From contig CAVPLY010000005.1 of the NCBI GenBank assembly GCA_963706045.1, positions 8,279 through 72,278 of the forward strand: 64,000 bases of DNA, given 5' to 3'. This document shows positions 7,712 through 60,741 of the stretch, piece by piece. Source of the stretch: an uncultured Actinomycetota bacterium. Lineage in GTDB: Bacteria; Actinomycetota; Actinomycetes; JAHEKZ01. A model generated the notes under the pieces. It saw only the letters and a program-made list of their open reading frames with translations, made no database searches and had not been told where the DNA came from. Numbering within the stretch: position 1 is the stretch's first letter; every line of letters begins with the position of its first letter. The position numbers and the translations under genes are program-made.

Positions 7712-8977
7712 TCAGCGGGTCAGAAGCCGAGCGGCCGAGGAATCCCAAGATGGCCTGCCTGTGCGGCGCTGCCAACGTTCGAAGACCAGTCGCTCGGCGA
7801 GGGCGTCCACCAAGGCGCCATGCGTCTTCGGTAGCCGCCTTGGCAGCAGTTCGCGAAGCGGCGGTTGCCTGAGTTCTTTCGGCCACCAGTGGGCCGCAAG
7901 CGACAGGTGGGTGTTCCACCGGGCGAGCGTGCCACCGGCGGACTGCCACGAGAGGGCGACGTCGGGGTACCCGTCCGGCGGACTCCATGCCAGCGGCTGC
8001 TGACCGAGTCCGTCGGAGATCCACACCAGCGCCTGCATCCCAGTGCGACCCTTGCGGTCGGGCTTGTAGCCGAGAACCCGCAGGGTCGCCACGAGATCCT
8101 CGAACGGACGCCTGGTCTTTTCCCCGATGGATCCAGCGAACTCGTCGCTGTTGAACAGCTGGCGGAGCACCGGGGCGATCGACGTGCCCTTGGCCAGGTA
8201 GGTCGCAGCAAGGCGGTTCACCAGCGCCGGCTCGGGGTGGTCGGACACGAATCGCTCACACAGCTTGTAGGCAATGTGGTGCGCCGTGGATGGGTGGTTC
8301 GCCAGGTACTTCAGGTACTTGATCCCCATCGAGTACCCGTCAGCATCCGGGTTCGCGTGTGAGAAGCCCATGACACTCACTGGTCCGCGATGGTGGTCGC
8401 GCCCCGAGTACATGAAGGTGCCCTTGCTCCAGTTGACACCGAAGCCGGTCATGATCAACGTCGAGTTGCGCATGTCTTGCTCGTTGTAGCCACCGTCAAC
8501 GCTGACGGTGTGCAGCTCAAGCAGCTCTCGACCGTAGTTCTCGTTGGGGTTCTCTTTGGTTGAGTCAGCGTTGTTCAGATAGAGCAGCATCGACGGGTGC
8601 GTGGCACTCGCGATGAGCATGTCCTCGAATCGACCGAGCGCGTGCTTGCGAATGACTCGGCGGTCATAGTCCTGACGGTTGTCCCACACTCGGTCGCTGG
8701 GGTTGGTGACATTGAGGTGGTTCGACCAGAACTCACACATCACTTCGAAGAGTTGGCGCTTGCTCCAGGTGGCCCTGGCAACGGTCGCCATGCTGACGTC
8801 GTACATCAAGTCCCAAGAGAACGGCTCGAGGCCGTCTCGCGCTTGGGGAATCGTCCAGCTGACCCGTGGGAAGCGATCCCGGATCAGCCGGTCGCAGGCG
8901 GAGTCGTCGATCGATCCGGGCGACAGCTGCTTGTTAAGCCATTTACTGCGTCCCTGCTTCTTGACCGCTGATTTCAA
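7712..8977 (-). CDS. DUF1800 domain protein; N-terminal Tat signal is encoded in a different frame (8943..9164), so apparently frameshifted
   Basis: 421-aa ORF with DUF1800-like sequence. The upstream ORF 8943..9164 encodes MATLTRRRLFGLAAAGAGGLSVA, a Tat signal, in another frame. Both frames are open over roughly 8980-9120. Confidence 0.75.
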   Translation of the reverse strand: MKSAVKKQGRSKWLNKQLSPGSIDDSACDRLIRDRFPRVSWTIPQARDGLEPFSWDLMYDVSMATVARATWSKRQLFEVMCEFWSNHLNVTNPSDRVWDNRQDYDRRVIRKHALGRFEDMLIASATHPSMLLYLNNADSTKENPNENYGRELLELHTVSVDGGYNEQDMRNSTLIMTGFGVNWSKGTFMYSGRDHHRGPVSVMGFSHANPDADGYSMGIKYLKYLANHPSTAHHIAYKLCERFVSDHPEPALVNRLAATYLAKGTSIAPVLRQLFNSDEFAGSIGEKTRRPFEDLVATLRVLGYKPDRKGRTGMQALVWISDGLGQQPLAWSPPDGYPDVALSWQSAGGTLARWNTHLSLAAHWWPKELRQPPLRELLPRRLPKTHGALVDALAERLVFERWQRRTGRPSWDSSAARLLTR

Positions 8978-9266
8978 CGCGGGAGTTGGGCCGAAGGTGG
9001 CCCGGCGCAGCAGATGAAGGTCGGGGCTCCGCGAGACGAACGTCAGCTCCGCTCCCTGCGTCTGCAGCCGCAGCCGTGCCGCCGGACGTCAGGGAGGCGA
9101 CCGAGAGGCCGCCGGCGCCGGCAGCGGCAAGTCCGAACAGTCGACGTCGCGTCAGGGTGGCCATATCGCGATGTCGTCAGGTCCATGCCCCAGACTTGAC
9201 GAAAGGATCTTCACGTCACCCATTTGGGCTCGTACATGTGGGCTATACAGCGCTGGGCTGAGGATC

Positions 9267-9899
9267 TCAGCCCAGCGGGATCACGGGAATCGACGGCAGC
9301 AGCCCCCGACGGGTCGCAACGCTGCCACCGGGCACTAAGAGCCGCGTCCACGAGGTGGTCGAGTAGGCGACGGCAATACCGTCGCCTGGTCCCATCAACC
9401 CCAGCGACTCGGCAGCGTGCGCACACCGCATGGGGACCTCACCGAGGCAGGTGCGCTCCCAGACGTCGGCGGCGATTTCTTCGAGCGCAGTCCGGTCCGT
9501 GACACCAGCGGCCCGCTCGCGGAAGAAGTGTTTCGCCGAGTCGACCGCAGCCCGGACATTGGCGACGTCACCCCGCATCCGTTCCTCCCAACCGCTTCTG
9601 GGTGGCAGCAGCCCGACCCAGCTCGGGCCGTTCACGGCGGCGGGCACCTCAATACGCTCGCCCTCACTGACGCGCTCGAAGAGCCGCTGGGCAGAGACAG
9701 TCGCATCGACTTCCGCGGCCTCAGCGAGCGCCACTGGCCGGAGGGCCACGACTTCGAAGGGTGGCCCGCTCCATACGCCAAGGGTGGGCCCCGCGGCTTG
9801 AAGGCGAACAGCGGCACGGTTGTCGAGCGCCACGAGCCGTTCCAGGTACCGCTGTAAACCTTGCCGCTCTTGATCGCCCGCAACCAGCAAGGAGGTCAC
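9267..9899 (-). CDS. Conserved hypothetical protein
   Basis: 210-aa ORF with a GTG start and a GGAG upstream. It overlaps the stop of the thioesterase gene by 4 nt, which suggests an operon. Confidence 0.5.
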   Translation of the reverse strand: MTSLLVAGDQERQGLQRYLERLVALDNRAAVRLQAAGPTLGVWSGPPFEVVALRPVALAEAAEVDATVSAQRLFERVSEGERIEVPAAVNGPSWVGLLPPRSGWEERMRGDVANVRAAVDSAKHFFRERAAGVTDRTALEEIAADVWERTCLGEVPMRCAHAAESLGLMGPGDGIAVAYSTTSWTRLLVPGGSVATRRGLLPSIPVIPLG

Positions 9900-10312: not shown

Positions 10313-10331
10313 CGCATCATCGCAACATCGC

Positions 10332-12002
<1,671 letters not shown>

Positions 12003-14075: not shown

Positions 14076-14079
14076 GCCG

Positions 14080-14760: not shown

Positions 14761-14761
14761 C

Positions 14762-18786: not shown

Positions 18787-20086
18787 TCAAGCGCGGTCTG
18801 AAGTCAGCAGGTGGCAGGTCCTCACGTCGTGAGGAGGCAGTTTCGACTTGGTCGCGAACTGGCATCAGGCGCGAGTCGACCACGTTGGGACGCATCGCCG
18901 TGCCGAATGGCTCGAGGTAGCGCCTGATCGCGATCGCCGCCGCCGCGCCTTCACCCGCGGCCGCAGCCGCTTGCTTCGTGCTTCCGCTGCGCACATCACC
19001 GGCAACGAAGACACCGGCCTGCGAGGTCTGCATCCCGGCGTCTGCCGCGACGAATCCTTGCTCGTCGAGATCGACCAGGTCGACCACCAATGAGGCGTTG
19101 GGCGTGAGTCCGATGAACACGAAGGCCGCCGGCGTCGTGATCGTCTCGCGGGCACCGTCGCTGCCTTCCACCACGACCCCGGTGAGCTTGCCGCCTTCGC
19201 CGACGAACTCGACCGGACTGGTGTTGGCGAGGACCTTGATGTCGTCGCTGCGCTGCACCTTCTCGACAGCCGCAGCGCTCGCGCTCAGCCGATCGGAGTT
19301 CGTGACGAGGGTGACCGTCTGGTCGAGTGTGGTGAGGAAGAGGCTCTCTTCGGTCGCGGAGTTGCCGCCACCGACGACCACGACAGACTCGCCGCGGTAG
19401 AAGGCGCCGTCACACGTGGCGCAGAAGTGCACGCCGGAGCCGATGAAGTCTTCCTCGCCCGGGATTCCCAGCCGACGGTAGGTGGAGCCGGTCGCCACCA
19501 GGAGCGCATGCGAGCGGTAGGCGTCCCCAGTGCCAGTTGTCACGACCTTCTGGTCACCTCGTACCGCGATGGAGGAAACCTCGGTGGCAGACAGGATCTC
19601 GACACCGAATCGCTCGGCCTGGCGACGCAAACGGTCAGCGAAGTCACTGCCGGCGACACCGTCAGGAAAGCCAGGGAAGTTGTCGACCTGGTCGGTAATT
19701 CCGATCGTGCCGCCGACTGCACCCGACTCGACGACGAGCGTGGGGATACCCTCGCGTGCGGCGTAGATCGCCGCCGTCAGCCCGGCGACGCCGCTGCCGA
19801 CAATGATGAGCGAGTAGAAGCGATGCTGGGCTTCGGTACGGAGCCCGAGCTTGGCCGCCAGATCGGCATTGCTGGGTTCGACCAGAGTGCTGCCATCGTC
19901 GAACACAAGAACCGGGATAATGAGCTTTCCGTCGTTGACTCGCTCGACTTCGGCACGGCCGGCGGCGTCATCGTCCACGTCGGTGAACTCGTAGGGCACG
20001 CGCTGCTCGCTCAGGAACTGCTTGGCTCTGTGGCAGTCGGGGCACCAGGCAGTTCCGTACATCTGGATCGGACGAGCAGCAGGCAT
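18632..20086 (-). CDS. Glutaredoxin-like (CPDC) domain fused to thioredoxin-disulfide reductase; unusual ~90-aa Arg-rich C-terminal extension
   Basis: N-terminal MYGTAWCPDCHRAKQF is an NrdH/mycoredoxin-like domain. It is followed by a complete TrxR: GSGVAGLTAAIYAARE FAD site, CATC redox centre and GGGNSA NADPH site. GAAGGGA Shine-Dalgarno precedes the ATG at 20086. The frame stays open about 270 nt past the normal TrxR end and overlaps the EAL gene by about 150 nt. Confidence 0.8.
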   Translation of the reverse strand: MPAARPIQMYGTAWCPDCHRAKQFLSEQRVPYEFTDVDDDAAGRAEVERVNDGKLIIPVLVFDDGSTLVEPSNADLAAKLGLRTEAQHRFYSLIIVGSGVAGLTAAIYAAREGIPTLVVESGAVGGTIGITDQVDNFPGFPDGVAGSDFADRLRRQAERFGVEILSATEVSSIAVRGDQKVVTTGTGDAYRSHALLVATGSTYRRLGIPGEEDFIGSGVHFCATCDGAFYRGESVVVVGGGNSATEESLFLTTLDQTVTLVTNSDRLSASAAAVEKVQRSDDIKVLANTSPVEFVGEGGKLTGVVVEGSDGARETITTPAAFVFIGLTPNASLVVDLVDLDEQGFVAADAGMQTSQAGVFVAGDVRSGSTKQAAAAAGEGAAAAIAIRRYLEPFGTAMRPNVVDSRLMPVRDQVETASSRREDLPPADFRPRLSGRYGDRDCFAHRVGAPTGLAGAWRHPCLGAADRGAHHRLDRRIRGPGPIR

Positions 20087-20173: not shown

Positions 20174-20650
20174 ATGGCGGCAAAGCTCAGTGCCGGTCTC
20201 TTGCCCTACCGCTGGCGCGGCGAGTGGCTTGAGGTCTTCCTCGTCCACCCGGGCGGTCCGTTCTGGGCGACAAAGGACGACGGTGCGTGGTCCATCGCCA
20301 AGGGTGAGTACGACAGGGGCGAAGACCCTTGGCGCACCGCCCTGCGGGAGTGGGAAGAGGAGATTGGCCAACCCGCTCCCAGCGGGGAGGCCACACTGCT
20401 CGGCGAGTACCGGCAGCCGAGCGGCAAGCTCATCACTGGCTTCGCCATCGACGCCGATTTCGAGGTCGACGAAGTGGTCAGCAACACGTTCACGATGGAG
20501 TGGCCACCACGCTCAGGTGTCGTTGGCGAGTTCCCTGAAGTGGACCGGGCCGAGTGGATGCCACTTGAGATTGCCAGACTGAAGCTGATCGCCGGCCAGC
20601 AGCCCTTTCTCGACCGATTGAAGATGCTCCTAGGGACAGTGGGAGCCTGA
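20174..20650 (+). CDS. NUDIX hydrolase
   Basis: Nudix box REWEEEIG within a 158-aa ORF. Divergent from the trxB-fusion gene. Confidence 0.85.
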   Translation: MAAKLSAGLLPYRWRGEWLEVFLVHPGGPFWATKDDGAWSIAKGEYDRGEDPWRTALREWEEEIGQPAPSGEATLLGEYRQPSGKLITGFAIDADFEVDEVVSNTFTMEWPPRSGVVGEFPEVDRAEWMPLEIARLKLIAGQQPFLDRLKMLLGTVGA

Positions 20651-20801
20651 ACACTCCCTCAACGCTTGCGAGTGAAAGTTCCTCGCGCCATCTTCCTGCC
20701 AATGTCACGCAATCACTTGTCTCCGCTCTGTCTGACCCCTACCGTTCACCCAAGATCATTTCCCTCAGGTGCGATCCCCGTCATCTGCCGGCGACGCCCC
20801 T

Positions 20802-20816
20802 TACCCCACAGGGGGA
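20802..20816. promoter_or_regulatory. Candidate copper-repressor (RicR/CsoR-like) operator TACCC-N5-GGGGA overlapping the RBS of the membrane-protein/multicopper-oxidase operon
   Basis: TACCCCACAGGGGGA lies 4 nt before the ATG at 20820. It differs from the mycobacterial RicR palindrome TACCC-N5-GGGTA by one position. Confidence 0.25.
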
Positions 20817-20819
20817 TTC

Positions 20820-21287
20820 ATGAGAACCACCTATCGCGTCATCGCCTACATCATTGCCGCCGAAGTCGCCATCCAGGCCGCGGCGGTGGCCTATGCCCTG
20901 TTCGGTCTGGGGATCTGGATCGACAAGGACGGCGGGGTTCTGGACAAGGCCGCCATAGAGAGCGAGCCCGACTTCCCCGGAGTCATCGGCTTCGCGGTGC
21001 ACGGCATGAACGGGATGATGCTCATCCCGTTGATCGCGCTGATCTTCTTCATCGTCTCTTTCTTCGCCAAGGTCCCCGGTGGCGTCAAGTGGGCGGGCTT
21101 CGTGCTCATCGCCGTGATTGTTCAGGTCACTCTCGGGTTGTTCGGCCACGAAGCTGCGAGCTTGGGTATTTTGCACGGGCTCAACGCGCTTCTGTTGTTC
21201 TCGCTCGCCGTCATGGCCGGCAAGCGTGCTGGGACGGCGAGCTCACAGCCCGCATCCGGAAGCCCAGCGGCTTCCACCTCGGTCTGA
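20820..21287 (+). CDS. Integral membrane protein (hypothetical); first gene of the multicopper-oxidase operon
   Basis: Four predicted transmembrane helices. ATG preceded by an AGGGGGA Shine-Dalgarno. It sits in an atypically low-GC upstream region. Confidence 0.6.
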   Translation: MRTTYRVIAYIIAAEVAIQAAAVAYALFGLGIWIDKDGGVLDKAAIESEPDFPGVIGFAVHGMNGMMLIPLIALIFFIVSFFAKVPGGVKWAGFVLIAVIVQVTLGLFGHEAASLGILHGLNALLLFSLAVMAGKRAGTASSQPASGSPAASTSV

Positions 21288-21321
21288 GCCTTTCCGCAAC
21301 ATCGGACTCAGGATCTCCACG

Positions 21322-22800
21322 GTGAAGCCGCGGCGGGGGCTCGTTCTCGCTGCGGTGGCGACTGCCGTCATCGTTGTACCCCTTGGGTGGCTGTGGTGGT
21401 CGAGCCTGCTGCCTGACGAGTACTCCGTGATGGAGATGGGGTACATGGACTACGGCGGTGGGCAGGCCGGCCACGAGGAAACCGGACACATGGAGTCTGA
21501 TGCGATCAGCATCACCGACCTGACGGTCCCTGCGGACGCGAAGCCGGATGTCACGGTCGAACTGACGGTGCGTAAGGAGACGTTCACGCTGGCATCCGGG
21601 CGACAAGTCGACGGCTACACGGTCAACGGCCAGTCGCCCGGACCCACTATCCGGGCAACCCAGGGGGACCTGGTCGAGGTCAACCTCGTCAACGAGTCAG
21701 TACCGGACGGAGTCGCACTGCACTGGCACGGAGTGGACGTCCCCAACGCGATGGACGGGGTGGCCGGTGTCACTCAGGACGCTGTTGCGGAAGGCGGCAC
21801 GTTCACCTACCGCTTCTACGCCAACCAGGTCGGGACGTACTGGTACCACTCGCATCAGGTGTCACACGAACAGGTCAAGGGCGGACTCCTGGGATCGCTC
21901 ATCGTCAGCCCAAACGGTAGGAGTCAAACCAGTAGGCCCAAGGTCGTGGACGTGCCTGCGCTCGTTCACATCTACGACGGGGTTCGAACCGTCAACGGTG
22001 AGGAAGGGGATGTTGGTGTCAGCTCCGGTGGTCGTGAGACGGCCAGGGTTCGCGTCATCAATACCGACAACGGTCCGATGTCGGTCTGGGTCAGCGGAGC
22101 TGAGTATCGAGTAGTCGCCATCGACGGGTACGACGTCCACCAACCTGAACTGGTGAGTGAAGAGGCGGTGTTGGTAACCGCGGGCGGACGCGTCGACGTC
22201 GAGGTCGCGATCGCAGATTCCGGAGCACGAGTTGAGCTCGGCGGCAACGCCTCCATCCTTCTGGGCGAAGGAGCCGAAGGTGTGACGGAAACCGCGGCTC
22301 CGCACGACTTCGTGGATCTTCTCCAGTACGGCGCACCCACCCCACTCGATTTCGACCCCAACGCGTCGACCCGCGACTTCGAGTACGTCGTCGATCGGCG
22401 ACCAGGTCTTCTCGATGGCAAGCCCGGGTTGTGGTGGACCGTCAACGGGCACATGTACCCCGATGTCCCGATGTTTGCAGTCGCTGAGGGCGACATCGTT
22501 CGCATGACGATCGCGAACCACAGCGGTGAGGTGCACCCGATGCACCTGCACGGACACCACGCGGTCGTACTTGCCCGTGACGGCGAGCCGGCCACCGGGA
22601 GCCCCTGGTGGGTTGACTCTCTCAATGTCCGAGACGGAGAGACGTACGACATCGCCTTCGTGGCGGACAATCCGGGGATCTGGCTGGACCACTGCCACAA
22701 CCTGCCCCACGCTTCAGAGGGACTGCTGGCTCACTTGATGTATATCGGGTACACCACGCCATACATGCTCGGTGGCGCGTCGGGGAACCAGCCCGAGTAG
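21322..22800 (+). CDS. Multicopper oxidase (laccase-like; MmcO/CueO type)
   Basis: HWHG, HSH, HPMHLHGHH and HCHNLPH copper-binding motifs. The GTG at 21322 is the only in-frame start downstream of the previous gene. N-terminal RRG plus a hydrophobic stretch suggests a Tat signal. Confidence 0.85.
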   Translation: MKPRRGLVLAAVATAVIVVPLGWLWWSSLLPDEYSVMEMGYMDYGGGQAGHEETGHMESDAISITDLTVPADAKPDVTVELTVRKETFTLASGRQVDGYTVNGQSPGPTIRATQGDLVEVNLVNESVPDGVALHWHGVDVPNAMDGVAGVTQDAVAEGGTFTYRFYANQVGTYWYHSHQVSHEQVKGGLLGSLIVSPNGRSQTSRPKVVDVPALVHIYDGVRTVNGEEGDVGVSSGGRETARVRVINTDNGPMSVWVSGAEYRVVAIDGYDVHQPELVSEEAVLVTAGGRVDVEVAIADSGARVELGGNASILLGEGAEGVTETAAPHDFVDLLQYGAPTPLDFDPNASTRDFEYVVDRRPGLLDGKPGLWWTVNGHMYPDVPMFAVAEGDIVRMTIANHSGEVHPMHLHGHHAVVLARDGEPATGSPWWVDSLNVRDGETYDIAFVADNPGIWLDHCHNLPHASEGLLAHLMYIGYTTPYMLGGASGNQPE

Positions 22801-22893
22801 CTGGGCGGTGCGAGCATTCGGCCCAACCCACCCGCGACCGTGCCCACCCAGGGGCTTGGACGGGGCCACGTTCTCGGACCTCGCCGAGGCGGG

Positions 22894-23409
22894 TCAGCTG
22901 GACCAACCTACGGCCGCAAGTACCTCTCGAGCGACTCCCTCGATCGGCCACCCGTCGTGATTCGGTACCGAGAAGTCCTCGACACCAGCTGAATGGACAG
23001 CCCTCGCCACAGCGGTGGAGTCCTGGAGCAACTCAGCCAGCTCCCGTCCCACATCTCGGCGACGGATGCGATCCCGTGCCAGGTCACTGGGAACCTCCAA
23101 CCGGACCACCTGAAGATCGGCTGGTTCGACTGCTGCCGCCACCATCTCGCGCTCGCCCATGTCGAAGAGGGCTCCGGCGATCACCAAGCTCTCGACGCCG
23201 ACGGTGGCGAAGTTGGTGACCATCGCCCGAAGGTTCCCCATCTTCACCCGCCACAGTTCAACCGGGTCCAAGTCCGGCCCGACCCAGCACAGCCAGTCCA
23301 GGTCGATGCCGGCCGAGGGGACTCCCTGCTCGGCCAGGAGATGGGTGATCTCGGCGGCGACTGCTGTCTTGCCTGCTCCGTACTCTCCCGTGATCAGCAG
23401 GCCCCTCAT
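22894..23409 (-). CDS. P-loop NTPase (AAA/adenylate-kinase-like; hypothetical)
   Basis: Walker A motif GEYGAGKT in a 171-aa ORF. Confidence 0.6.
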   Translation of the reverse strand: MRGLLITGEYGAGKTAVAAEITHLLAEQGVPSAGIDLDWLCWVGPDLDPVELWRVKMGNLRAMVTNFATVGVESLVIAGALFDMGEREMVAAAVEPADLQVVRLEVPSDLARDRIRRRDVGRELAELLQDSTAVARAVHSAGVEDFSVPNHDGWPIEGVAREVLAAVGWSS

Positions 23410-23426
23410 GGCCCACAGGGTATTGG

Positions 23427-25638
23427 TCAGGTCAAGATCGTCGCTGACGGTCGTGTGTCTAGGGCGATTTGGCCAGAAGCTGGAACTGGTTCCATCATCG
23501 GCTCGGGGAGGCCCGCTTCACCATCGACGTCGATGGCGGGCAGCACCCTGTCGAGCCAGGCAGGGATCCACCAGTTGGCGTCACCCAACAGCTTCATCGT
23601 GGCGGGCACCAGAATGAGTCGTACCACCGTGGCGTCGAAGAAGATGGCAGTCGCCAGACCGAGACCCATCATCTTGGTGGCCGGGTCCTCGCCGAGGATG
23701 AAACCGAAGAACACCGCGATCATGATCAGAGCTGCGGACGTAATGACTCGTCCGGTACTCGCGATGCCACGGACCACAGACGTCTCGTTGTCACCGGTGT
23801 GGATGTACTCCTCACGCACCCGGCTGAGCAGGAAGACCTCGTAGTCCATCGAGAGCCCAAACAAGATCGCGAACATGAACATCGGAATGAATGCGATGAC
23901 CGGAACCGTCTCTTGCAGGCCGATCAGATCCATACCCCACCCCCATTGGAAGACAACGACGAGCACGCCGTACGCAGCTCCAATGCTCAGCAGGTTCATC
24001 ACCGCCGCCTTCAGTGGGACAAGGACCGAGCGGAAGACCACGGTCAGCAGCAAGAAGGACAGCAGCACGACGGCTGAGATGAAGAGCGGCAACCGGTCGC
24101 CGACCCGCCCCCCGAGGTCACCCCAGGTCGCAGTCTGACCCCCGATGTGGGCGCTGGCCGACCTGTCGACAAGGACCCGCGGAAAGACGTCCGTGCGCAG
24201 CCGCTGAACGGTCTCGAACGTTGCCTCATCCTGGGGCTCCGTGGTCGGGATAGCCACCAAGGTGCTGACCGAGCCGTCGGCGCTGACCTCGGCGGGCGAG
24301 ACGGAGGCGATCCCCGGGTCTGCCTCGATGGCCGCGGCGAGCGGCTCGACCACGTCTGGGTCGGCTGACGTGTCGACGGCGATGACGAGCGGACCGTTGA
24401 CTCCGGGCCCGAATCCGTCTGCCAGGAGGTCGTAGGCAAGGCGTTCGGTGCGGGTCTCGGGGAGCGCCCCCTCGTCCGGAAATCCGAGCCGCAGCGACAG
24501 CGCAGGTGCCGCCATGGCGATGAGCAGCGCAGCCCCACCAATGGCATAGACCCACGCGTGCCGCGAGACATGCCGGCCCCACCGGTGCCAGCCCGCGCCT
24601 GCCACGCGTTCTCTGCGCGAGAGGCGGGACCGACGGCGAAGTCCGTTGATGCGGTGTCCCGCAAGGCCGAGGAGGGCCGGCAGCAGCGTCACTGCAGCAG
24701 CGACCATTACCGCTACGACGACCGACACGGCGATACCGGCAGCCGTCATAAAGGGAATGCCCGAGACCGCGAGACCGAGGATCGCGATGACCACGACCCC
24801 TCCCGCAAAGATGACCGACTGCCCGGCGGTTGCTACGGCGCGTCCGACCGACTCCTCCACTGTCATGCCACGTGCCAGGAACTCGCGGTGCCGGGTGACC
24901 AGGAAGAGGGCGTAGTCGATTCCGACTCCGAGACCAACCATGGCACCCACAACGGGTGCGAAGCTCGGAATGTCGACCAGATAGTTGACGAGGGACAACG
25001 CACTGACGCTCACCCCCAGTCCGATCAGAGCGATCCCGATCGGAAGCCCCATCGCGATGACCGATCCGAAGGCGAGGAGCAAGATGATCACAGCGGCGAT
25101 CAGGCCGAGCATCTCGCCCACTCCGGTCTGCGACTCCTCAAAGGCGAAGAATAGGTCACCACTTGTCTCGATCTGCAGTGTCGACCCATCGCGAGCGTCG
25201 GCAGCCAGCTCCTTGAGGTTGTCCAGATCGACCGGGTCGAGTTCTTCGACCACCGGGTACTGAACGCGCACGAGCGCCACGGTGCCATCCGGTGAGACGG
25301 ATGTCGTTGTGCCCAGAACGTGTGGAAGGGTCCGCAGCGACGCCTTGAGCGAGGCAAGATCCTCACGCGCCTGTGCCGAATCGGGAAAGCTCACGTCACT
25401 TGTCGAGCGGGGTGACGACGACCTGGGCTGTCAGGCCGGCCCGGTTCGACTGAGCCGCCTGTTGCAGGTCGACGGCCCGCTGGGAGTCGAGCCCCGGCAC
25501 CGCGAATGAGTCCTCGAGTGCCTTCCCGAAACCAGCCGCGGCCACGATCACCATCACCGAGACGACGAGCCAGGCGCCGATAACCCGCCACGGCCTCCTG
25601 GCGGCAAACCGACCCCACCGATACATCAGACTCGACAT
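23427..25638 (-). pseudogene. MMPL family RND-type transporter, interrupted by a +1 frameshift near 25395
   Basis: The N-terminal 81 aa (MSSLMYRWGRFAARRPWRVIGAWLVV...VVTPLDK) lie in ORF 25396..25974 and end at a TGA. The remaining 655 aa continue 1 nt later in another frame. The combined length of about 737 aa is normal for MMPL. Removing a single T from aagTgacgtgagc restores ...LDKDVSFPDS. Confidence 0.8.
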
Positions 25639-27616: not shown

Positions 27617-27637
27617 CCACAATCCAGGAGGACCACC

Positions 27638-27916
27638 ATGCTCTACCACCTCTCGATCCATCGACCAAAGCCCGAGCACGAACAGGATCTGATTGCGTCG
27701 ATGCACCGCTTTGGCGCGGCCGCGCTGGACCAGGGCGCGACCGAAGCCCACACCTTCAAGGACGTCCGCTCGGACGCGCTTGTCGGGTTGGCGATCTGGC
27801 AGTCCGACGACGACCTCGCCGCCGCGAGACCGGCCCTCGGCGCAGCAGTCGAGCACGACGACTTCGATCTGTGGGAGAGCAGTCCGGTCGAGTCGTTCCT
27901 GCTGCACGACGTCTAG
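27638..27916 (+). CDS. Small ABM/Dabb-like protein (putative antibiotic-biosynthesis-monooxygenase fold)
   Basis: 92-aa ORF with an AGGAGG Shine-Dalgarno. Begins MLYHLSIHRPKPEHEQDL. Confidence 0.55.
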   Translation: MLYHLSIHRPKPEHEQDLIASMHRFGAAALDQGATEAHTFKDVRSDALVGLAIWQSDDDLAAARPALGAAVEHDDFDLWESSPVESFLLHDV

Positions 27917-27948
27917 TCACGCGGAAGCGTTCCTGAACCGTTCTGTGA

Positions 27949-28563
27949 TTACTCGGGGCGAACCGCCACTACCAGGACATCCAGAGCCGATCGAGGTCCG
28001 TCGTCCGTCCGCACCTGGCGTGTGACGCTCTCGGAACGCATCACATCCAAGCCTGTGTCCTTGAGGTCGGCGACCACATCTTCGGGTGTGTACAGAAGTG
28101 CTGCATCTTGAGGACCACCTGATCCGCGCGTGAGGTTGTCGGTGTGGTGACCCACGACGACGAGCTGACCTCCGGGGGCCACGGCACGTGCCGCATGCAG
28201 AAGGGCAGACCGCTGCTCTCGTGCCGGTAGATGGAGGTACGCAACGATGACTAGGTCAAAGTCAGCCGCCCCCCAGGGCCCTTCGGTGACGTCTCCGACC
28301 TTCCCCGTCAGCGAGCCACTCGGCGTTTCACGTTGGGCCCACAACTGTTGGGCGCGACTCACCGCGATGGCGGAGAAGTCGACGATGGTCGCTTGCCACC
28401 CCCGGTCAGCAAGCCAGAGGGCGTTCCGCCCTTCCCCACCCGCTACGTCGAGGGCCCGTCCAACTGGCAGATTCGCCGTCGTCTCGGCGACGAACACATT
28501 CGGTTCGGCGGACCAGACAAGGTCGCGCTCCGCATATCGAGCGTCCCAACCCTTGCTGTCCAT
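27949..28563 (-). CDS. Class I SAM-dependent methyltransferase (TehB-like)
   Basis: LDVAGGEGRNALWLADRGWQATIVDFS is SAM-binding motif I. AGGAAGGA Shine-Dalgarno upstream. Confidence 0.8.
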   Translation of the reverse strand: MDSKGWDARYAERDLVWSAEPNVFVAETTANLPVGRALDVAGGEGRNALWLADRGWQATIVDFSAIAVSRAQQLWAQRETPSGSLTGKVGDVTEGPWGAADFDLVIVAYLHLPAREQRSALLHAARAVAPGGQLVVVGHHTDNLTRGSGGPQDAALLYTPEDVVADLKDTGLDVMRSESVTRQVRTDDGPRSALDVLVVAVRPE

Positions 28564-30117: not shown

Positions 30118-31406
30118 ATGCCGACTGAAGAATGGACCACCGACGCCCTGATCAGGCAGTTCGACAATGTCCGGGCCTATACCGAGCAACTCGCGGCGCC
30201 GTTGTCACCAGAGGACCAGACCGTCCAGTCGATGCCCGACGTGTCCCCCACCAAGTGGCACCGGGCCCATGTCACCTGGTTCTTCGAGACGTTCGTCCTG
30301 GCCGAGACCGAAGCCTGGCTTCGCGCCCTATCAAGACGAGTACTGGTACCTGTTCAACAGCTATTACGAGTCTGTCGGGCCCCGCTACTCTCGCCCCGAC
30401 CGCGGGCTGATCAGTCGCCCTGGCGCCCATGAGGTCGGCAGCTACCGCTCAAACGTGAACGATCGGCTGCGCGACATCGTCGCCTCGGTCGACGGCGGAT
30501 CGCTCGAGAAGGTCGCGCCCGTGATCGAGCTCGGTTTCCACCATGAGCAGCAGCACCAAGAGCTGCTGCTCATGGACATCAAACACGTCCTGTCGGTGAA
30601 CCCGATGCAGCCGACATACGCCGGCCAACCGTCCGAGCGTGGCGAACCGGACGCCCTCGGTTGGGTTGACGTCGAAGGCGGGTTGGTCGAGATCGGCCAT
30701 GCAGGCAAGGGTTTCCGGTTCGACAACGAAGAACCTCGGCACCGTGTCTGGCTCGAGCCCGTACCGCCTGGCCGACCGACTCGTCACCAACGGCGAGTGG
30801 CTCGAGTTCATGGCCGATGACGGCTACGGCCGACATGAACTCTGGCTCTCCGACGGCTGGGGCAAGGTGAAGTCCGGCGGATGGCGCTCGCCGTTGTACT
30901 GGACCGAGCTCGACGGCGTCTGGTTTGAGCACACGCTGCACGGCACGTGGCCAGTCAACCCAGCGCTGCCCGTCAGCCACGTGAGCTTCTACGAGGCCGA
31001 GGCTTACGCTTCCTGGTCCGGAAAGCGGCTTCCGAGCGAGGCCGAGTGGGAGCACGCGGTGGTCAGCGACGGTCAGCCGGTTGTGGGCAACCTCGCCGAC
31101 TCGCAGACCTTCCACCCGCGCGCAGCAGGCCCGAAGGCAGGTCGGTTACGCCAGATGTACGGCGACTGCTGGGAGTGGACGTCGTCGGCATACCACCCCT
31201 ATCCCGGGTTCCATCCGCCCGTGGGCGCGATCGGTGAGTACAACGGCAAGTTCATGTCCAACCAGATGGTGCTGCGTGGCGGCTCCGCGCTGACGCCGAG
31301 CGACCACGCTCGTTCGACCTACCGCAACTTCTTCCCGCACGCCGCTCGTTGGGCATTGTCCGGGGTGCGGTTCGCCGACGGCGGTGCACCGGTGGCCGCC
31401 GTATGA
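30118..31406 (+). pseudogene. egtB: Ergothioneine biosynthesis protein EgtB (hercynine sulfoxide synthase), split over three frames by two frameshifts
   Basis: DinB_2 N-terminus in frame 1 to about 30330, middle part in ORF 30167..30820, and the FGE-sulfatase-like C-terminus (GNLADSQTFHPRAAG...MVLRGGSALTPSDHARSTYRNFF) in ORF 30639..31406. AGGAGG Shine-Dalgarno before the ATG at 30118. Total about 429 aa, as in mycobacterial EgtB. Confidence 0.8.
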
Positions 31407-32389
31407 CCAGGTCAAGTCACCGGTCGTCCAGCGACTGCTCGACCCCGACTGGGCTGCCGGCAGCCTCGCCGACGACGTGCGCCGTGGTCTCGGCTCCTTT
31501 CCGCGCACCCTGCCGCCCAAGTGGCTGTACGACGACCGCGGCTCGGCTCTGTTCGATGAGATCACGCGGCTTCCGGAGTACTACCCGACGGAACGAGAGC
31601 GCCACATCCTGAACGAGAACGCCCGCGCGATCGCCAAGGAGTCGACGGCCTCGATCCTCATCGAGCTGGGGAGCGGCACGTCCGACAAGACGCGCACCCT
31701 CCTCGATGCGTTCGTCGCGACTGGGCAGCTCGAACGCTTCGTGCCCGTCGACGTCTCGGAAGCTACGCTCCGTCGCGACCGCCTACGACATCTCTCACGC
31801 CTACCCAGGACTTCAGGTCGAGGCGATCGTCGGCGACTTCACCCTTCATCTTGCTCATTTGCCGCATGGGGGGCCGCGCATGGTGGCGTTCTTGGGCGGG
31901 ACCATTGGCAACCTCTACGTCGAGGAGCGTGCTGCGTTTCTGGGGGCGTTGGCCGACTCCCTCTCAGCTGGTGACTCGTTGTTGCTCGGCTTCGACCTGG
32001 TGAAGGACACGAACCGTCTGATCTCTGCCTACGACGACCCGCAGGGACTGACTGCGGACTTCGTCCTGAACTCCCTTCGGGTGCTCAATCGTGAGCTCGA
32101 TGCCGACTTCGACCTCGACGCCTTCACCTACGTCCCGTTCTGGGACCCGCACATGGAGCGGATGGATCTGAGGCTCCGGTCCGAGATGCCGCAACGGGTA
32201 CGGATTCCAGGTGCGGCGCTCGAGATCGACCTGGGATCAGGCGAGGAGATCCGCGTCGAGATCTCGACGAAGTTTCGACCCGAAGGAATTCGGTCCGAAC
32301 TTGCCGCTGCCGGATTCGACGTCACCGGCACGTACACCGACCCAGGACGCGACTTCGCCGTCGTTCTCGCGAAGCGAACTCCCACGTAG
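31384..32389 (+). pseudogene. egtD: L-histidine N-alpha-methyltransferase EgtD, one frameshift near 31770
   Basis: Residue-by-residue similarity to M. smegmatis EgtD: LPPKWLYDDRGSALFDEITRLPEYYPTERE, ELGSGTSDKTRTLLDA, then in the second frame GDFTLHL, FLGGTIGNL and FDLDAF.... Confidence 0.8.
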
Positions 32390-33120: not shown

Positions 33121-33142
33121 TGAGGGGTGATCTGGGCAGTTG

Positions 33143-41910: not shown

Positions 41911-43340
41911 ATGAGCGCTCAGACGGTAAACACAGTTCCCACTCCAGCGACCTGGCCAGCTCACGACCCGGCCACCTATCGCGTCATCCCCGAGGGCGCC
42001 GCCCCGCTCGACCCGGCACGCGTGGCATCGCTACTCGCGGCCGAATGGGAACGATTCAAGGCACAGACGCCCAACTCCGGTGCTCACCACGCCCGCGCGC
42101 TCGGCTCGCTGCCGCTCGGCGTGCCATCGTCCTTTCAGTACTGGGACCCCTATCCCGTGGCGATCACCAGCGCCAACGGTGCCTGGCTGACCGACGTCGA
42201 CGGCCGCCAGGTACTCGACCTCTCGATGGGCTTCGGCGCCATGCTGGTGGGCCACCTCAACCCCACGGTCGTCGCCGCAGTCGGCAAGGCCCTGGAGACC
42301 GGAACCCTGTTCGTCACCCCGTCACCGTCAGCGACCGAAGCGGCCGAGCGCTTCCAGCGGCGCTTCGGACTCGACAAACTCCGGTTCACCAACTCTGGGA
42401 CCGAAGCCACAATGTACGCAGTCCGCACCGCGCGTGCGTTCACCGAACGCAAGGCGATCATCAAGATCGAGGGCGGCTACCACGGCGGCTACGACGCTCT
42501 GCAGGTCTCGGTGAAACCCGATGTCGCCGACATCGGACCCGAGGAGGCACCTACACCGCAAACACCGTTCGAGGTGGAGGCGGGAACGGTCTACGTCGTT
42601 CCCTACAACAACCTCGCACGCTGGAACAGCTCTTCGCCGAGCACGGTTCCGAGGTTGCCTGCGTCTTCATGGAACCGGTGATGGAAAACATCGGGATCGT
42701 AGTCCCCGACGAGGGTTACCTCGCCAGTGTGCGCGCCATGTGCGATGCCAACGGCGCCCTCCTGGTGTTCGACGAGGTCAAGACCGGCCTCACGGCCGGG
42801 CCTGCCGGAGCCGCGCAACGGCTCGGAGTCACGCCGGATCTGATCTGTCTGGCCAAGAGCATCGGGGGTGGCCTGCCCCTCGCAGCCTTCGGTGGACGCG
42901 AAGAGGTCATGGCCTGCGTGTCCGACGATCGCATGCCGCATTTCGGCACCTACAACGGCAACCCGCTCGTCGTGGCAGCCGCTGTGGCGATCGATGAGAT
43001 CGCCACAGCCGAGGCGCTCTCATCGGCCGAGAAGCTCAATGTCGACGCCCTCGAGGCGATGAACTCGATCATCAACGAGCATGCCCTACCGGCCCACACA
43101 GTGGGCCTGGGCGTCAAGGGTGCGGTCACCTGGTCAACGACCCCAGTGCGCAACTATCGCGACTACAAGCGCACCGACTTCGGTGCCGCCGAGCTCAGTT
43201 GGCTCTGGGGCGTCAACCGCGGCATTCTGACCCCGCCCGGGCTCGACGAGCAGTGGCTGGTGTCGCTGGCTCACACCGCCGACGACATGAACATTCTCGT
43301 CAGCGACTTCCGCGAACTCGCCGAGGCCCTTCGCGGCTGA
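41911..43340 (+). pseudogene. Class III (PLP-dependent) aminotransferase, glutamate-1-semialdehyde aminomutase-like; single frameshift near 42612
   Basis: N-terminal part (FTNSGTEATMYAVRTARAFTERKAIIKIEGGYHG) in ORF 41911..42681. C-terminal part with the PLP lysine region (LLVFDEVKTGLTAGP...CLAKSIGGGLPLAAFGG) in ORF 42045..43340. The junction is ...VYVVPYNNL / EQLFAEHGSEV. Confidence 0.85.
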
Positions 43341-49263: not shown

Positions 49264-49369
49264 CGGCTACTTCCTCCACGATCGTTGGCGCTCGGAGTGC
49301 GTCAGACTAGCGTCTTGGACGGCCCTCCGACTGGTGCCTGCTGCTGTTCGGCGTCTGGGTCGGAGTCAT

Positions 49370-49560
49370 TGCCAGCACAACCAGACCGTCATCGTGCTGA
49401 TGGCAGCACTCGCCCAGAACGCTTGGGCACGCCATACCTGGCAGCGGGCCATCGACCGACAACAGTCGCCACCCCAAGTAGCTGCCTAACTCCCCGCCTC
49501 ACAACCTCACTCCACCTGGTTCAGCCGCGCCCACGACCGGGCTCGAGCGCCCGAAATCGC
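49370..49560 (+). mobile_element. Remnant of the 3' end of a DDE-transposase gene plus its downstream flank (IS scar)
   Basis: Encodes ...HNQTVIVLMAALAQNAWARHTWQRAIDRQQSPPQ, about 90% identical at the nucleotide level to 50895-51005. Immediately followed by repeat copy 2. Confidence 0.6.
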
Positions 49561-49574
49561 TCACTGACACTCCA

Positions 49575-49715
49575 CTGAGGGCCAAACCCACAAGGAATGC
49601 CGCACGTCCCGCCCCCGTAGGACATGCGTGAAACTCCGTCAGCCTCACCTGACCTGTGTGTTCATTGGAGCCCGAGGGTGTGGCGGAAGTGGATCGGGTC
49701 AGTTCCGGAAGTGAC
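49575..49715 (+). repeat. Copy 2 of the ~190-bp hairpin repeat; lacks the left about 70 bp
   Basis: ggggccaaacccacaaggaatgccgcacgtcccgcccccgtaggacatgcgtgaaactcc...cacctgacctgtgtgttcattg...ttccggaagtgac. Confidence 0.75.
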
Positions 49716-49973
49716 TCAATCGAAAGAGCCCACGCTGAAGTTTTCTAGGCCCGGCATCTGGCGGCCGATGACATCGTCGCCGCGGCTAAGTTCGAAGACG
49801 CCTGTCCTGAGGTCGAGTGTGAGCTCGTCGTAGAGACCGTATCCTCTAGACAGCTCTGCTGAATCTCTCCGACCTGGCCCACCGGATATCACCAGACCCG
49901 AGGTAGGCACGATGTTGTGGTAGATGGCGTCCCAGTCACCCGCGCTCCTCCCCCGTGAGGAACCAGTCGTCAA
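49716..49973 (-). CDS. Hypothetical small protein (85 aa); could be a gene fragment
   Basis: ORF only. Located between repeat copy 2 and the transposase remnant. No motif recognised. Confidence 0.25.
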   Translation of the reverse strand: MTTGSSRGRSAGDWDAIYHNIVPTSGLVISGGPGRRDSAELSRGYGLYDELTLDLRTGVFELSRGDDVIGRQMPGLENFSVGSFD

Positions 49974-50076
49974 AGCGCACGCTCTGTAAGGTGCGCAGAG
50001 ATCGTTGGCACCAAACTTAAGCCTGACGCGGCCAGATGCTTCGCTGCGCCCGAGCTCAGTGGCCTAGGTTGGGCTC

Positions 50077-50343
50077 GTGAGCAAGAGCGACGCCCAGCGG
50101 GCATTGAGAGAAGCCAACTTCGCCCGTCGTAAGGCGGCCCAGACAGAGCGGGTTCCCAAGCGAACGGCAGAGGCGAAACATTCCCCCGCCGGCGAACCTG
50201 AAAGAGCACAGGCCACTAGGCCCTCAGCGGTCAAGACGCCATCGACAAGCGCGACCGAACCCCTTTGCGGTCACCGCAACATGGGGGGCAAGAAATGTAG
50301 TCGCCCCGCTGGCCACGCGGAGAAGAACCATCGCTACAAATAG
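50077..50343 (+). CDS. Hypothetical small basic protein with a C-terminal Cys/His cluster (CGHRNMGGKKCSRPAGHAEKNH)
   Basis: 88-aa ORF upstream of the transposase fragment. Possibly a zinc-ribbon remnant of the same disrupted IS. Confidence 0.3.
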   Translation: MSKSDAQRALREANFARRKAAQTERVPKRTAEAKHSPAGEPERAQATRPSAVKTPSTSATEPLCGHRNMGGKKCSRPAGHAEKNHRYK

Positions 50344-50446
50344 CGACGTCCCAACAACATCCCGAGCCGACAGTCGGGGGTCGGGGCGGGAAACCGTTTG
50401 GCACATCTTCCCCGCTCGCCGCAAGAGCAAAGAACGAGGCGGCATC

Positions 50447-51007
50447 GTGATCAGCAAGTACGGCCACGCCGCCACCCAGCTCCCGCCAAGCCGAACACGC
50501 GCAGCGTGGATAGAAGAATGCGGAGGGCACGTCCTCTACGCGGCCGGCGGGACGATCTACGAGCGCGTCGTGACCGCCGACGGAAGCCTCGACTTCGTCG
50601 AAGTCACCCGCCACCAGACCAAACGAGACCGCAAGGCTGATGGGAACTGGGCGTTCTACGCCCGGCACACCCTGACCTGCCGATCTACCGGCGACCTGCA
50701 CGACTGGTGGGAGCCGCTCACCCCGACCCAGACGGACGAGGCACACAAGTTCAATCGCAGCGACTACCTGCGCGTCCTGCCCCCGACCGACCCCGACTAC
50801 AGCCGCGTCTACGGCATGCGGGCTGACACCGAGTCGCTGAACGCGCAGTTTGAGCGCGCCTTCTACAACCGAAGGCTCCCGGCCTGGGGCCTCCACAACC
50901 AGACGGTCATCGTGCTCATGGCAGCACTCGCCCAGAACGCCTGGGCCCGTCACACCTGGCAACGGGCGATCGACCGACAACAGTCACCGCCACAAGCAGC
51001 TGCCTGA
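50447..51007 (+). mobile_element. DDE transposase C-terminal fragment (IS pseudogene; IS4/ISAs1- or IS256-like C-terminal motif, family uncertain)
   Basis: YSRVYGMRADTESLNAQFERAFYNRRLPAWGLHNQTVIVLMAALAQNAW resembles transposase C-terminal Y-R-E / ESLN...LxxL signatures. There is no N-terminal HTH or DDE domain, so it is truncated. Confidence 0.55.
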
Positions 51008-51093
51008 CCCCCCCACTTCACACCGAAGCCAAACCGGGCTCAACCACGTCCCCACACCGATCCACAGTCACAAAATCGTTCCCTGACAGCCCC

Positions 51094-51310
51094 ATCGGGG
51101 CCAAACCAGCGCCAAAGCCCGCCCCCTAGACTTAATCCGCCCCGATCCCAACCGATCGCGGCAGGGTCCAGCAGGTTTCCCACAAGGAATCCCGCACGTC
51201 CCGCCCGCGTAGGACGTGCGGAAAACTCCCCGCGCCGCACCTGACCTGCGAGTTCACCATGGCGCGAGCGCCTACTGGAAGCGAATATGGCCAGATCCGG
51301 AAGTGGCCGC
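51094..51310 (+). repeat. Copy 3 of the ~190-bp hairpin repeat (full length)
   Basis: ctagacttaatccgccccgatc...cgcggcagggtccagcaggtttcccacaaggaatcccgcacgtcccgcccgcgtaggacgtgcggaaaactcc...cacctgacctgcgagttcacc...atccggaagtggccg. Confidence 0.8.
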
Positions 51311-56772: not shown

Positions 56773-56812
56773 CGGTCGCCGGACCTTCGGAGTGACCTAG
56801 AGAGGATTCGAG

Positions 56813-58225: not shown

Positions 58226-58282
58226 CGACAAGGGCGCGAACCTTCGCGTTAGAGCCTGCGCGAGCTCTGGGGCGTCACCCGC

Positions 58283-58954
58283 TCAGAGTTCGTTCACGGC
58301 GCGTGCCACAACGAGACCGATCAATGCGAGGGAGATCGCCGACTGTGTCATCAACCAGAGCTTGGACCAGTGCCTGATTGGCGAGACATCGGTCGGACCG
58401 AACGTGGTCGACGTATTGAAGGACAGCGCAAGGTAGTCGACAAACTGTGGGTACCAGTTGCCGTAGCCGGGGCCCTCGAGATCCTGCTCACGAAAGTGGA
58501 AGGCCGGCAGCCCCTGGAACGAGGCTTGAACGCGCGCCCCCGGTCCGCCGCTGTCGAGATGCCAGTACCAGAGGGCAAAGGCGATGACCGCCATGACCCA
58601 GATGATCGCGCCGGTGGCGAGCAACTGTCCTGTGCCACTGAGAGTCTCTCGCTCCAAGATCAGGACCACGAGCCGGACTGCGGACGCCGCGGTTGCCACC
58701 GTCATTGCTCCGATCATCACGCCGGTCACGGTGCGGAGCCACCGGGTTTCCCGGTCGATCCGTCCCGGGTCTCCCAGGATGAGAACGGCTACGAGTACCA
58801 GCAGGAATGCCGGGTAAGCGAAGGCTCCGAGGTCCGAGACCCGGAACTGGGCGGGAAGGAGGAGGTAGAGGAGGCCGTTCACGACCACGGCGGCCGCCAT
58901 CGGCAGGCGCCTCTCTCCCCGTCTCTCAGGGCCAACTGCAGGTGGCTCGGCCAT
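58283..58954 (-). CDS. DUF1345 membrane protein
   Basis: Start at the ATG (MAEPPAVG...) with a GGAGGA Shine-Dalgarno. Multiple transmembrane helices. The upstream 104 codons of the ORF are rejected. Confidence 0.65.
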   Translation of the reverse strand: MAEPPAVGPERRGERRLPMAAAVVVNGLLYLLLPAQFRVSDLGAFAYPAFLLVLVAVLILGDPGRIDRETRWLRTVTGVMIGAMTVATAASAVRLVVLILERETLSGTGQLLATGAIIWVMAVIAFALWYWHLDSGGPGARVQASFQGLPAFHFREQDLEGPGYGNWYPQFVDYLALSFNTSTTFGPTDVSPIRHWSKLWLMTQSAISLALIGLVVARAVNEL

Positions 58955-58980
58955 GCGGATCCTCCAGATTGTTCCGGGCC

Positions 58981-60741
58981 TCAGGCAGGATCCCTGGGGG
59001 TTGCTGGAGGGGCTGTCGGATCGGAGGCCGAGCCCTCGGACTCCCCTTCGATCCCCGACAACGCCATGTCGATCGATGGATAGACGTGCTGGCGCGTGAA
59101 GGTTGCAAACAAGCCGTACCGATCGAGGAGGTCTTCGATGCGGCTGCGCATCTCGACGAACACCACATTCACACCTTGACTGTTCAGCTCCTTGTCGAGC
59201 TGATCCAGCACATCCGCAGCCGTGACGTCGATGTCGGTGATCGCTTCGCACTGCAGCACGACCCATCGCGGCTTACGGCGCCGCACGAGCCTACGGATCT
59301 CCTGGCGGAAGATCCCTGCGTTCGCGAAGAACAGCGGAGCCTCCCAGCGGTAGACGACGATTCCGTCCATCTCTTCGGCCTCGGGGTAGCGATCGGTGCT
59401 GTGCCACCCATCGAGCTCGGCGACGTCGCCCCAGCACCTCTCCCTCCGGCCACCAGTTGCGCCGGAAGAACAGCAGGATCGACAGTACGACGGCGATCAG
59501 GATGCCCTGGAGCACACCGAAGAGGATCACGCCGAGGGACGTCACGAGTGAGATCACGAGGGCGGTCTTACGCATGCGGAGGTACGTGCGAAGGATCGAG
59601 AAATCGAAGAGAGTCAGCGCCGCCACGATCACCACGGCGGCGAGCGCCGGTTGTGGAAGGTTCTGTAGGAGCGAAGGCAGGAACAGAAGCAGGACGACCA
59701 CGACGGCTGGCGCCGGCGAGGCCCGTGACCTGCGACTTCGAGCCCGACTGCTCGGCGACCGCCGTTCGCGATCCGCTCGCCGAGATCGCGAAGCCCTGGA
59801 ACAGGCCGGCGGCAATGTTCGCTCCGCCCATCCCGATCATCTCTTGGTTGGGATTGACGTCGTCGCCCCTGCGGGCCGCGAAACTAGTCGATGTGGCGAT
59901 CGTGTCCGTCAGTGACACGAGGACGATGCCGAAGGAGGCCAGGAGCAAGGCCCCGAGAGTGTCGAGGGGGACGGAGGGGAAGGCAGGCGTCGGCAGCCCC
60001 TGCGGCAGCGCACCTACGACGTCGACACCTTCCGCGGCCAGGTCGAGGACGCCGGTGACCACCGTCGCGCCGACGACCGCAACGAGCACCGCGGGAATCT
60101 TCGACATAACGAGTGGAAGGATCAGCAGCACTGCCAGGGTGGCCAGGCCGATGGCCAGTGCCGTGGTATTCCGTCTGGTCCAGTCCCTCCAAGAACGATG
60201 TCACCTCGTCGACGAACCCGTCCGCGTCGGTCGAGAACCCGAAGAGCTTCGGCAGCTGGCCAACGATGATCGTGATCGCCAGGCCGTTCATGTAGCCGAC
60301 CTGCACTTCCTTGGAGAGCAGGTCGGCGACGAACCCCAGCTTCCCGAGGCCGAGACCGACCTCGATCGCGCCGACCATCAGGGCCATCATCCCCGCGAGC
60401 GCAACCGCTTCGGCGGGGTCGTCAGTCACCATCAGTGGCACGATCGCAGCGAAGATCAGCGGTGCAACAGAGGAGTCCGGGCCCAGTACCAGGATGCGGG
60501 AGGGGCCGAAGATCGCGTACCCGACGAGACAGGCGATCGTCGTGTACAGGCCGTTAACCGCGGGGACCCCTGCGAGCTCGGCGTAGGCCATGCCCTGCGG
60601 CACGAGGATTGCCGCTAGCACGATACCCGCGACGAGATCGTACCGAAGCCACGAGGGTCGGTAAGAGCGGAGCATCCCGATCCCCGGCGCCCACCGCAGG
60701 AGCGGGGATCGCTTGGTGCTAGCCGTCTGCTCCATGTTCAT
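58981..60741 (-). pseudogene. SulP-family anion (sulfate/bicarbonate) permease with C-terminal STAS domain, broken by at least three frameshifts
   Basis: Consecutive SulP segments lie in four different frame-ORFs: 59884..60882 (transmembrane helices 1-5, LVAGIVLAAILVPQGMAYAELAG), 59568..60131, 59291..59815 and 58981..59370 (STAS: VVYRWEAPLFFANAGIF...). Confidence 0.8.

Follow-up and report, generated by a model that had tools for sequence, protein, structure and literature searches.

Fifteen single-base frame breaks interrupt ten genes in a 64,000-nucleotide stretch of DNA from an uncultured Actinomycetota bacterium (contig CAVPLY010000005.1 of assembly GCA_963706045.1; the whole stretch is called the window here), and they are very probably uncorrected consensus indels of a low-coverage long-read metagenome assembly, not products of gene decay. 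Each break is exactly one base, 11 being insertions and 4 deletions in nucleotide alignments to intact relatives, each is private to the window, and repair restores full-length conserved proteins in which relaxed selection is undetectable. We strongly favor the view that the feature is a property of the assembly and not of the organism. A preliminary description of the window had counted at least 11 genes and about 15 breaks, and had offered either pseudogene accumulation or assembly indels as the cause; the number of breaks stands, the number of genes is 10 and not 11, and the evidence favors the second cause and speaks against the first.

The breaks affect ~17% of the ~58 genes encoded in the window, at 0.26 breaks per kb of coding sequence, a density that to our knowledge is not shown by intact genomes. 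Segmentation by codon-usage log-odds finds same-strand frame switches within long coding stretches at each place named in the preliminary description, and Pfam divides single families between reading frames (egtD, SulP, and the aminotransferase). All the breaks listed there are present, within ~10-80 nt of where they had been placed, and the list was incomplete, since 7781 in the DUF1800 gene and 31407 in egtD must be added to it.

Relatives were drawn from a genome scan, a metagenome scan, and the contigs encoding the best protein hits, and were aligned gene by gene at the nucleotide level. The nearest sequences to the window in public collections are metagenome-assembled genomes (MAGs) of uncultured Actinomycetota, and the closest relative is contig_12785 of MFD09779.bin.1.42 (L001/L167), a Nanopore-only Microflora Danica MAG that is collinear with the window at 4.7-20.6 kb and 23.5-32.4 kb, with 90-92% nucleotide identity. 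L081, L166, and L167 are long-read contigs of Microflora Danica, a project that also has shallow Illumina data, L002 and L084 are SPAdes short-read assemblies, and L082 and L085 are NCBI MAG contigs whose platform is not known. Every relative compared is free of interruption at all 15 sites (2-7 relatives, 75-92% nucleotide identity, including the short-read L002 and L084), so that the search of related genomes for the same breaks, proposed in the preliminary description, finds none in common. The assemblies L002, L084, L082, and L085 are intact across all compared regions, and the closest relative, at 92% nucleotide identity, is intact at the break sites of the window; the comparison contains no same-species assembly. 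The broken genes and their breaks are as follows:

7629 to 9164, minus strand: DUF1800 gene with a Tat signal peptide (MATLTRRRLF...), two breaks; the Pfam profile is matched only over 1-385 of 419, and the Tat signal lies in another frame
7781, minus strand: one-base deletion at the DUF1800 C-terminus; gap in the window against L167, 92% nucleotide identity
9042, minus strand: one-base insertion outside any homopolymer, directly following the DUF1800 signal peptide; gap in L167, GACGAACGTCAG against GACGAAC-TGAG
18864 to 20086, minus strand: glutaredoxin-thioredoxin reductase fusion (Grx-TrxR), expected extent; Pfam Glutaredoxin and Pyr_redox_2, homologues ending 2-10 residues past 'VVD'
18871, minus strand: one-base insertion in Grx-TrxR; CAGGC-CGCGTCGAC in L167 against CAGGCGCGAGTCGAC in the window, same gap in L087
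23427 to 25638, minus strand: MMPL transporter gene; residues 1-213 of the L001 orthologue in frame -2 and 215-849 in frame -3, Pfam MMPL beginning at profile position 65
25395 to 25398, minus strand: one-base insertion in MMPL within TGAC (minus strand), not in a homopolymer; one-base gap in both L001 and L002
30118 to 31406, plus strand: egtB-like sulfoxide synthase gene (DinB_2 and FGE-sulfatase), in three reading frames
30311, plus strand: one-base insertion in egtB, A in GAAG; gap in 7 of 7 relatives
30758, plus strand: one-base insertion in egtB, C in CCC; gap in 7 of 7 relatives
31403 to 32389, plus strand: egtD, histidine methyltransferase; Pfam Methyltransf_33 profile positions 2-105 in one frame and 105-303 in another
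31407 to 31408, plus strand: one-base deletion in egtD, CCC to CC, 2 nt past the ATG codon; the window is the only gapped sequence of 8
31778, plus strand: one-base insertion in egtD outside any homopolymer, an A placed between G and C; gap in 7 of 7 relatives
32492 to 32790, plus strand: small Dabb-like gene with an AGGAGG ribosome-binding site ahead of it, its end taken from the orthologue; a single open reading frame (ORF) in L002, matched by two window pieces in two frames
32566 to 32567, plus strand: one-base deletion in the Dabb-like gene; GAGTGG-GTGACC in the window against GAGTGGCGGGACC in L002
36239 to 38246, minus strand: OYE plus FAD/NAD(P) oxidoreductase gene, trimethylamine dehydrogenase (TMADH)-like, 669 aa when repaired; reconstruction 94% identical to 669-aa homologues over 100% of length
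36521, minus strand: one-base insertion in the OYE/TMADH-like gene, not in a homopolymer; gap in L084 and L085
41911 to 43340, plus strand: class III aminotransferase gene; repaired product of 476 aa with 96% identity to protein P0121, also of 476 aa, and with Pfam Aminotran_3 positions 8-135 and 178-338 in separate pieces
42619 to 42620, plus strand: one-base deletion in the aminotransferase gene, GG in the relative; the only gap in 1.44 kb at 92% nucleotide identity to L083
55416 to 56772, plus strand: diacylglycerol-kinase-like (DAGK-like) gene with an N-terminal membrane segment; residues 1-100 of the 453-aa L081 orthologue in frame 3 and 100-452 in frame 1
55722, plus strand: one-base insertion in the DAGK-like gene; gap in L081
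58984 to 60741, minus strand: SulP anion transporter gene with a STAS domain, in four frames; Pfam pieces 1-162, 155-321, 324-380, and STAS in four ORFs
59426, minus strand: one-base insertion in SulP, not in a homopolymer; gap in L081 and L082
59710, minus strand: one-base insertion in SulP; gap in L081, L082, and L166
60172, minus strand: one-base insertion in SulP; gap in L081, L082, and L166

The 18871 insertion puts the TGA stop of Grx-TrxR out of frame, and the gene consequently reads ~250 nt into the neighboring EAL-GAF gene, close to the ~270 nt of read-through estimated earlier. As had been described, the MMPL insertion lies outside a homopolymer and generates an in-frame TGA, and the aminotransferase has lost a C from a CC run; in the alignment the relative has GG (CC if read on the opposite strand) and the window one base fewer. 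The deletion at 31407 cuts the egtD start codon off from the gene body, and the insertion at 36521 is the sole indel across 2 kb at 90% nucleotide identity between the window and L084 and L085. Of the 13 located sites, only 2 belong to a run of at least three identical bases, the background being 11.6%, and at several sites (25395, 31778, 36521, 59426, and 9042) the inserted base is unlike both of its neighbors. Inspection of the 15 sites by eye found no common sequence or methylation-like motif.

Adding or removing one base at each site gives the exact length of the orthologue in 6 of the 8 genes measured (MMPL, 2367 nt; egtB, 1329 nt as in L001; egtD, 969 nt; aminotransferase, 1428 nt; OYE, 2007 nt; DUF1800, 511 aa), and repaired SulP and DAGK are full-length, 1-2 codons off the orthologue. 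With both of its sites repaired, the DUF1800 protein shares its stop with the 511-aa L167 orthologue and matches it to the C-terminal ...LILDSPYHWVR. The SulP, aminotransferase, and OYE reconstructions share 86-96% identity with homologues across 98-100% of their length, the 585-aa SulP having 86% identity to 583-aa homologues. No unavoidable internal stop is present in any repaired gene, and no nonsense lesion, multi-base indel, or large deletion was seen in the ten broken genes.

Might these genes have died only recently? The first alternative to assembly error is that accessory transport and secondary-metabolism genes (egtB-egtD, SulP, MMPL, DUF1800, and others) are genuine, very recent pseudogenes newly inactivated by real one-base frameshifts, and we consider it improbable. 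In its favor, the breaks crowd into certain genes and into one operon (5 of the 15 lie in egtB, egtD, and the small gene beside them, and 3 in SulP), the genes hit are mostly accessory, and the Dabb-like gene also has no stop codon at the orthologous position. However, selection on the broken genes tells against it. The broken genes, once repaired, have pairwise dN/dS values of 0.064-0.121 (0.08-0.09 for egtB and egtD), and their intact neighbors have values of 0.063-0.258. Three-way comparisons of MMPL, egtB, and egtD in the window, L001, and L002 assign 112 synonymous and 16 nonsynonymous codon changes to the window branch, a ratio of 0.14, which is lower than in the intact relatives (141 and 29 in L001, 0.21; 244 and 58 in L002, 0.24). 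Genes that had drifted neutrally for long enough to acquire two or three frameshifts should carry an excess of nonsynonymous changes, yet the window has a deficit, which speaks against decay. This comparison of branch ratios is a stronger argument than a Poisson test on the nonsynonymous counts alone, which depends on the assumed substitution-to-indel ratio and is indecisive below ~5:1. Nor does the window deviate at any of the invariant columns defined by 120 homologues each for SulP (0 of 97), the aminotransferase (0 of 181), and OYE (0 of 196), retaining all 474 residues, and relaxed purifying selection is thus not detected in the broken genes by dN/dS, branch ratio, or invariant residues. 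Deviations at 5-31 such columns occur in several database proteins that come from long-read contigs. The proteins P0088, P0055, and P0066 have many odd residues at otherwise invariant columns.

The lesions themselves are equally unlike those of decaying genes. All are one-base indels unaccompanied by nonsense codons, larger deletions, or insertion sequence (IS) insertions, no IS-like gene being seen in Pfam scans that covered part of the window ORFs; they are away from slippage-prone runs, and inserted bases that differ from both neighbors are unlike the products of replication slippage. No break is common to any relative, and the sister long-read assemblies have similar private insertions in different genes, including a gnd-like gene. 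The preliminary description had noted that core genes are intact, but such sparing is poor evidence for selective decay, since 15 random hits on 58 genes would leave most of them untouched by chance, and the private breaks of the sister assembly fall in gnd-like, GH15, and Grx-TrxR genes. If the indels were real, a free-living soil actinobacterium would very recently have undergone a burst of non-slippage, insertion-biased, one-base frameshifts in ~17% of its genes, and its relatives would independently have done likewise, a picture that we regard as decidedly improbable. Were it true, it would point to an unusual mutator state specific to indels or to genome decay at its first step, with an unusually abrupt onset of pseudogenization.

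The private insertions of the sister assemblies are informative in their own right. Within the 15.9 kb that it shares with the window, L167 has a one-base insertion in GH15, another in the gnd-like gene, and a two-base insertion in Grx-TrxR, at the following positions:

L167:10870, window 15631: +1 in L167 GH15, called as 313 and 259 aa
L167:12540, window 17300: +1 in the L167 gnd-like gene, called as 242 aa and not 308 aa
L167:14485, window 19254: +2 in L167 Grx-TrxR, giving a 102-aa fragment

The window is intact at the positions broken in L167, and L167 is intact at those broken in the window. A second long-read contig, L166 (ERZ25039459 contig_35674), has private one-base insertions at L166:9034 and L166:9967, in a Na/H exchanger and in SulP, whose called products have 241 and 500 aa, respectively. 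Long-read assemblies that each carry different private small insertions are predicted by technical error and not by shared biology. Eight products of the window, among them the OYE read-through of 696 aa and the aminotransferase fragment of 256 aa, are present in a collection of 15 billion proteins, and each is recorded on a single 88,557 bp contig only (NCBI/ENA, with no protein accessions); the Microflora Danica contigs L081, L166, and L167 are the same kind of record as the window's contig. The Microflora Danica catalogue is Nanopore-only, was assembled with Flye, and received one round of Medaka polishing, and its authors describe Nanopore-associated errors in MAGs of lower coverage (PMC12313526). 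Many annotated bacterial pseudogenes arise from the assembler, the platform, and the coverage (Cooley & Wright 2024; PMC11017572).

In the light of these records, the assembly is most likely Nanopore-only, with coverage that may be low throughout or very low locally, and its source would be an uncultured soil or sediment actinobacterium in which the genes themselves are presumably intact and functional. A gene caller run on such a sequence would return split or read-through products, and the clusters of breaks at 30.3-32.6 kb and 59.4-60.2 kb could be stretches with very few reads behind the consensus. Several points weigh against assembly error. The platform and coverage of the window are deduced from the kind of record and from the relatives, and not from reads or metadata, and low coverage as the cause is accordingly a probable explanation and not an observed one. 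The spread of the breaks is uneven, if only modestly so, with 6 of 14 spacings shorter than 800 nt (P = 0.013) and hits in no more than 10 distinct genes (P = 0.03), as would be given by dead genes or operons accumulating hits; however, local low coverage would explain the clustering as well as gene decay does, and the clustered genes show the clearest purifying selection. Classic Nanopore errors concentrate in long homopolymers, and those of the window do not, so that the error profile is somewhat atypical. Finally, the excess of insertions over deletions (11 versus 4) has no specific explanation.

A mixture could also be envisaged, in which most breaks are assembly errors and one locus, for example egtB-egtD-Dabb or SulP, is truly decaying. 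The breaks reach a local density of ~2 per kb between 30.3 and 32.6 kb and of 4 per kb between 59.4 and 60.2 kb, compared with 0.26 per kb overall, which would suit this reading, but the genes with multiple hits are the most constrained, egtB and egtD by the dN/dS values given above and SulP by its invariant columns, which are kept across all four frame segments, and we judge a mixture highly unlikely. That the genes are expressed in full through programmed ribosomal frameshifting or transcriptional slippage is hardly conceivable, and programmed frameshifting can be excluded because no site is common to the relatives and the sites lack a shared motif or slippery heptamer: the MMPL site, AAG TGA C on the coding strand, loosely resembles the prfB +1 site CUU UGA C, but recoding sites are conserved among orthologues and every orthologue examined is single-frame at these sites, no common motif or X XXY YYZ heptamer was found by eye (stimulatory structures were not looked for), in agreement with the preliminary description as to the heptamer, corrections are needed in both the +1 and -1 directions, and 15 such sites in 64 kb would be without known bacterial precedent.

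Assembly error as the source of the breaks has practical consequences. Taken at face value, the contig would wrongly imply the loss of ergothioneine synthesis, of a sulfate-family transporter, of an MMPL exporter, and of other functions, and would wrongly imply genome decay, and recognizing this is of value for quality control. Artifact and decay may be told apart even when no reads are at hand, by lesions that are private, that are all of one base, and whose repair restores the length of the orthologue to within 1-2 codons or exactly, by an unchanged nonsynonymous to synonymous ratio on the branch, by the retention of invariant residues, and by sister assemblies with different private breaks.

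The window has a G+C content of ~65%, and Pfam assigns most of its genes to a family. Between 1 and 17.5 kb, Pfam identifies the pepN C-terminus, prolyl oligopeptidase, MscS, globin, DUF1501, DUF1800, ettA, SSB, zwf, pgl, GH15, and a gnd-like gene; between 17.5 and 32.4 kb, the EAL-GAF protein, the Grx-TrxR fusion, multicopper oxidase, MMPL, a two-component pair, Fur, Dps, egtB, and egtD; and between 36 and 61 kb, the OYE/TMADH-like oxidoreductase, the class III aminotransferase, the DAGK-like kinase, and SulP. Four neighboring pairs considered as further breaks were rejected as separate genes: TPM/DUF5130 and HNH (1.4-2.7 kb), DUF8010 and 4HBT (9.3-10.3 kb), the membrane protein and multicopper oxidase (20.7-22.8 kb), and the histidine kinase and response regulator (25.6-27.6 kb). 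Paired +1/-1 differences from L167 (9259/9267, 9871/9875, 17482/17488, and 19559/19563) compensate within a few bases and reflect noise of the alignment where the DNA is variable or intergenic. One-base length differences from the sister contig also occur in intergenic DNA, at 5778, 7628, 18816, 28595, 29079, and 29091, several of them in G runs (GGG versus GG; GGGGG versus GGGG), and either assembly may be the correct one.

The ergothioneine genes at 30118-32389, egtB and egtD, make up a unit of two in which the stop of the first overlaps the start of the second (ATGA); egtA, egtC, and egtE are not adjacent to it, as in the relatives. In the Dabb-like ORF, TGG replaces the TAG stop of L002 and reading continues to 33120. 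The other strand has an ORF of 95 aa (32881-33168) that aligns with no more than residues 42-126 of a 231-aa protein of L083 and may be a fragment of a gene. The sister contig ceases to be collinear at 20616-23483, where the window has genes for a membrane protein, a multicopper oxidase, and a P-loop protein and L167 has an NPCBM-domain gene and small ORFs. A segment of ~340 nt at 27617-27956, between the response regulator and a methyltransferase, is missing in L001 and contains a 100-aa ORF (27617-27916, plus strand) with a good coding score and no Pfam match. The Fur gene stops 4 codons sooner in the window than in L001. The coding score is low in the N-terminal third of the LuxR/GAF gene (46.2-46.7 kb), and ~1 kb at 49300-50400 has a weak or ambiguous coding signal and no convincing gene; a 242-aa protein of L083 has short matches at 49375-49494 and 50866-51111.

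How does the window compare with known systems? Like programmed frameshifting in prfB (+1) and dnaX (-1), its breaks are one-base changes of frame within continuous coding sequence, but its sites are unconserved, have no slippery motif, and require shifts in both directions. Pseudogene-rich genomes in reductive evolution, such as those of Mycobacterium leprae and Sodalis glossinidius, have mixed lesions (nonsense codons, deletions, and IS insertions), relaxed dN/dS, lower coding density, and lesions common to related strains. The window resembles them in its high interrupted fraction (~17%) and in having some genes with multiple lesions, and is unlike them in that none of these four features is seen in it. 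The closer parallel is with spurious pseudogenes produced by long-read indel errors (PMC11017572) and with the Microflora Danica long-read MAGs (PMC12313526). The window differs from these in that its errors are not focused in long homopolymers and insertions exceed deletions, and its platform is itself deduced from related records. It is alike in having private one-base indels, split or read-through genes, and perfect repair by one base, in the normal, conserved character of the remaining sequence, and in that related long-read MAGs show the same defect in other genes.

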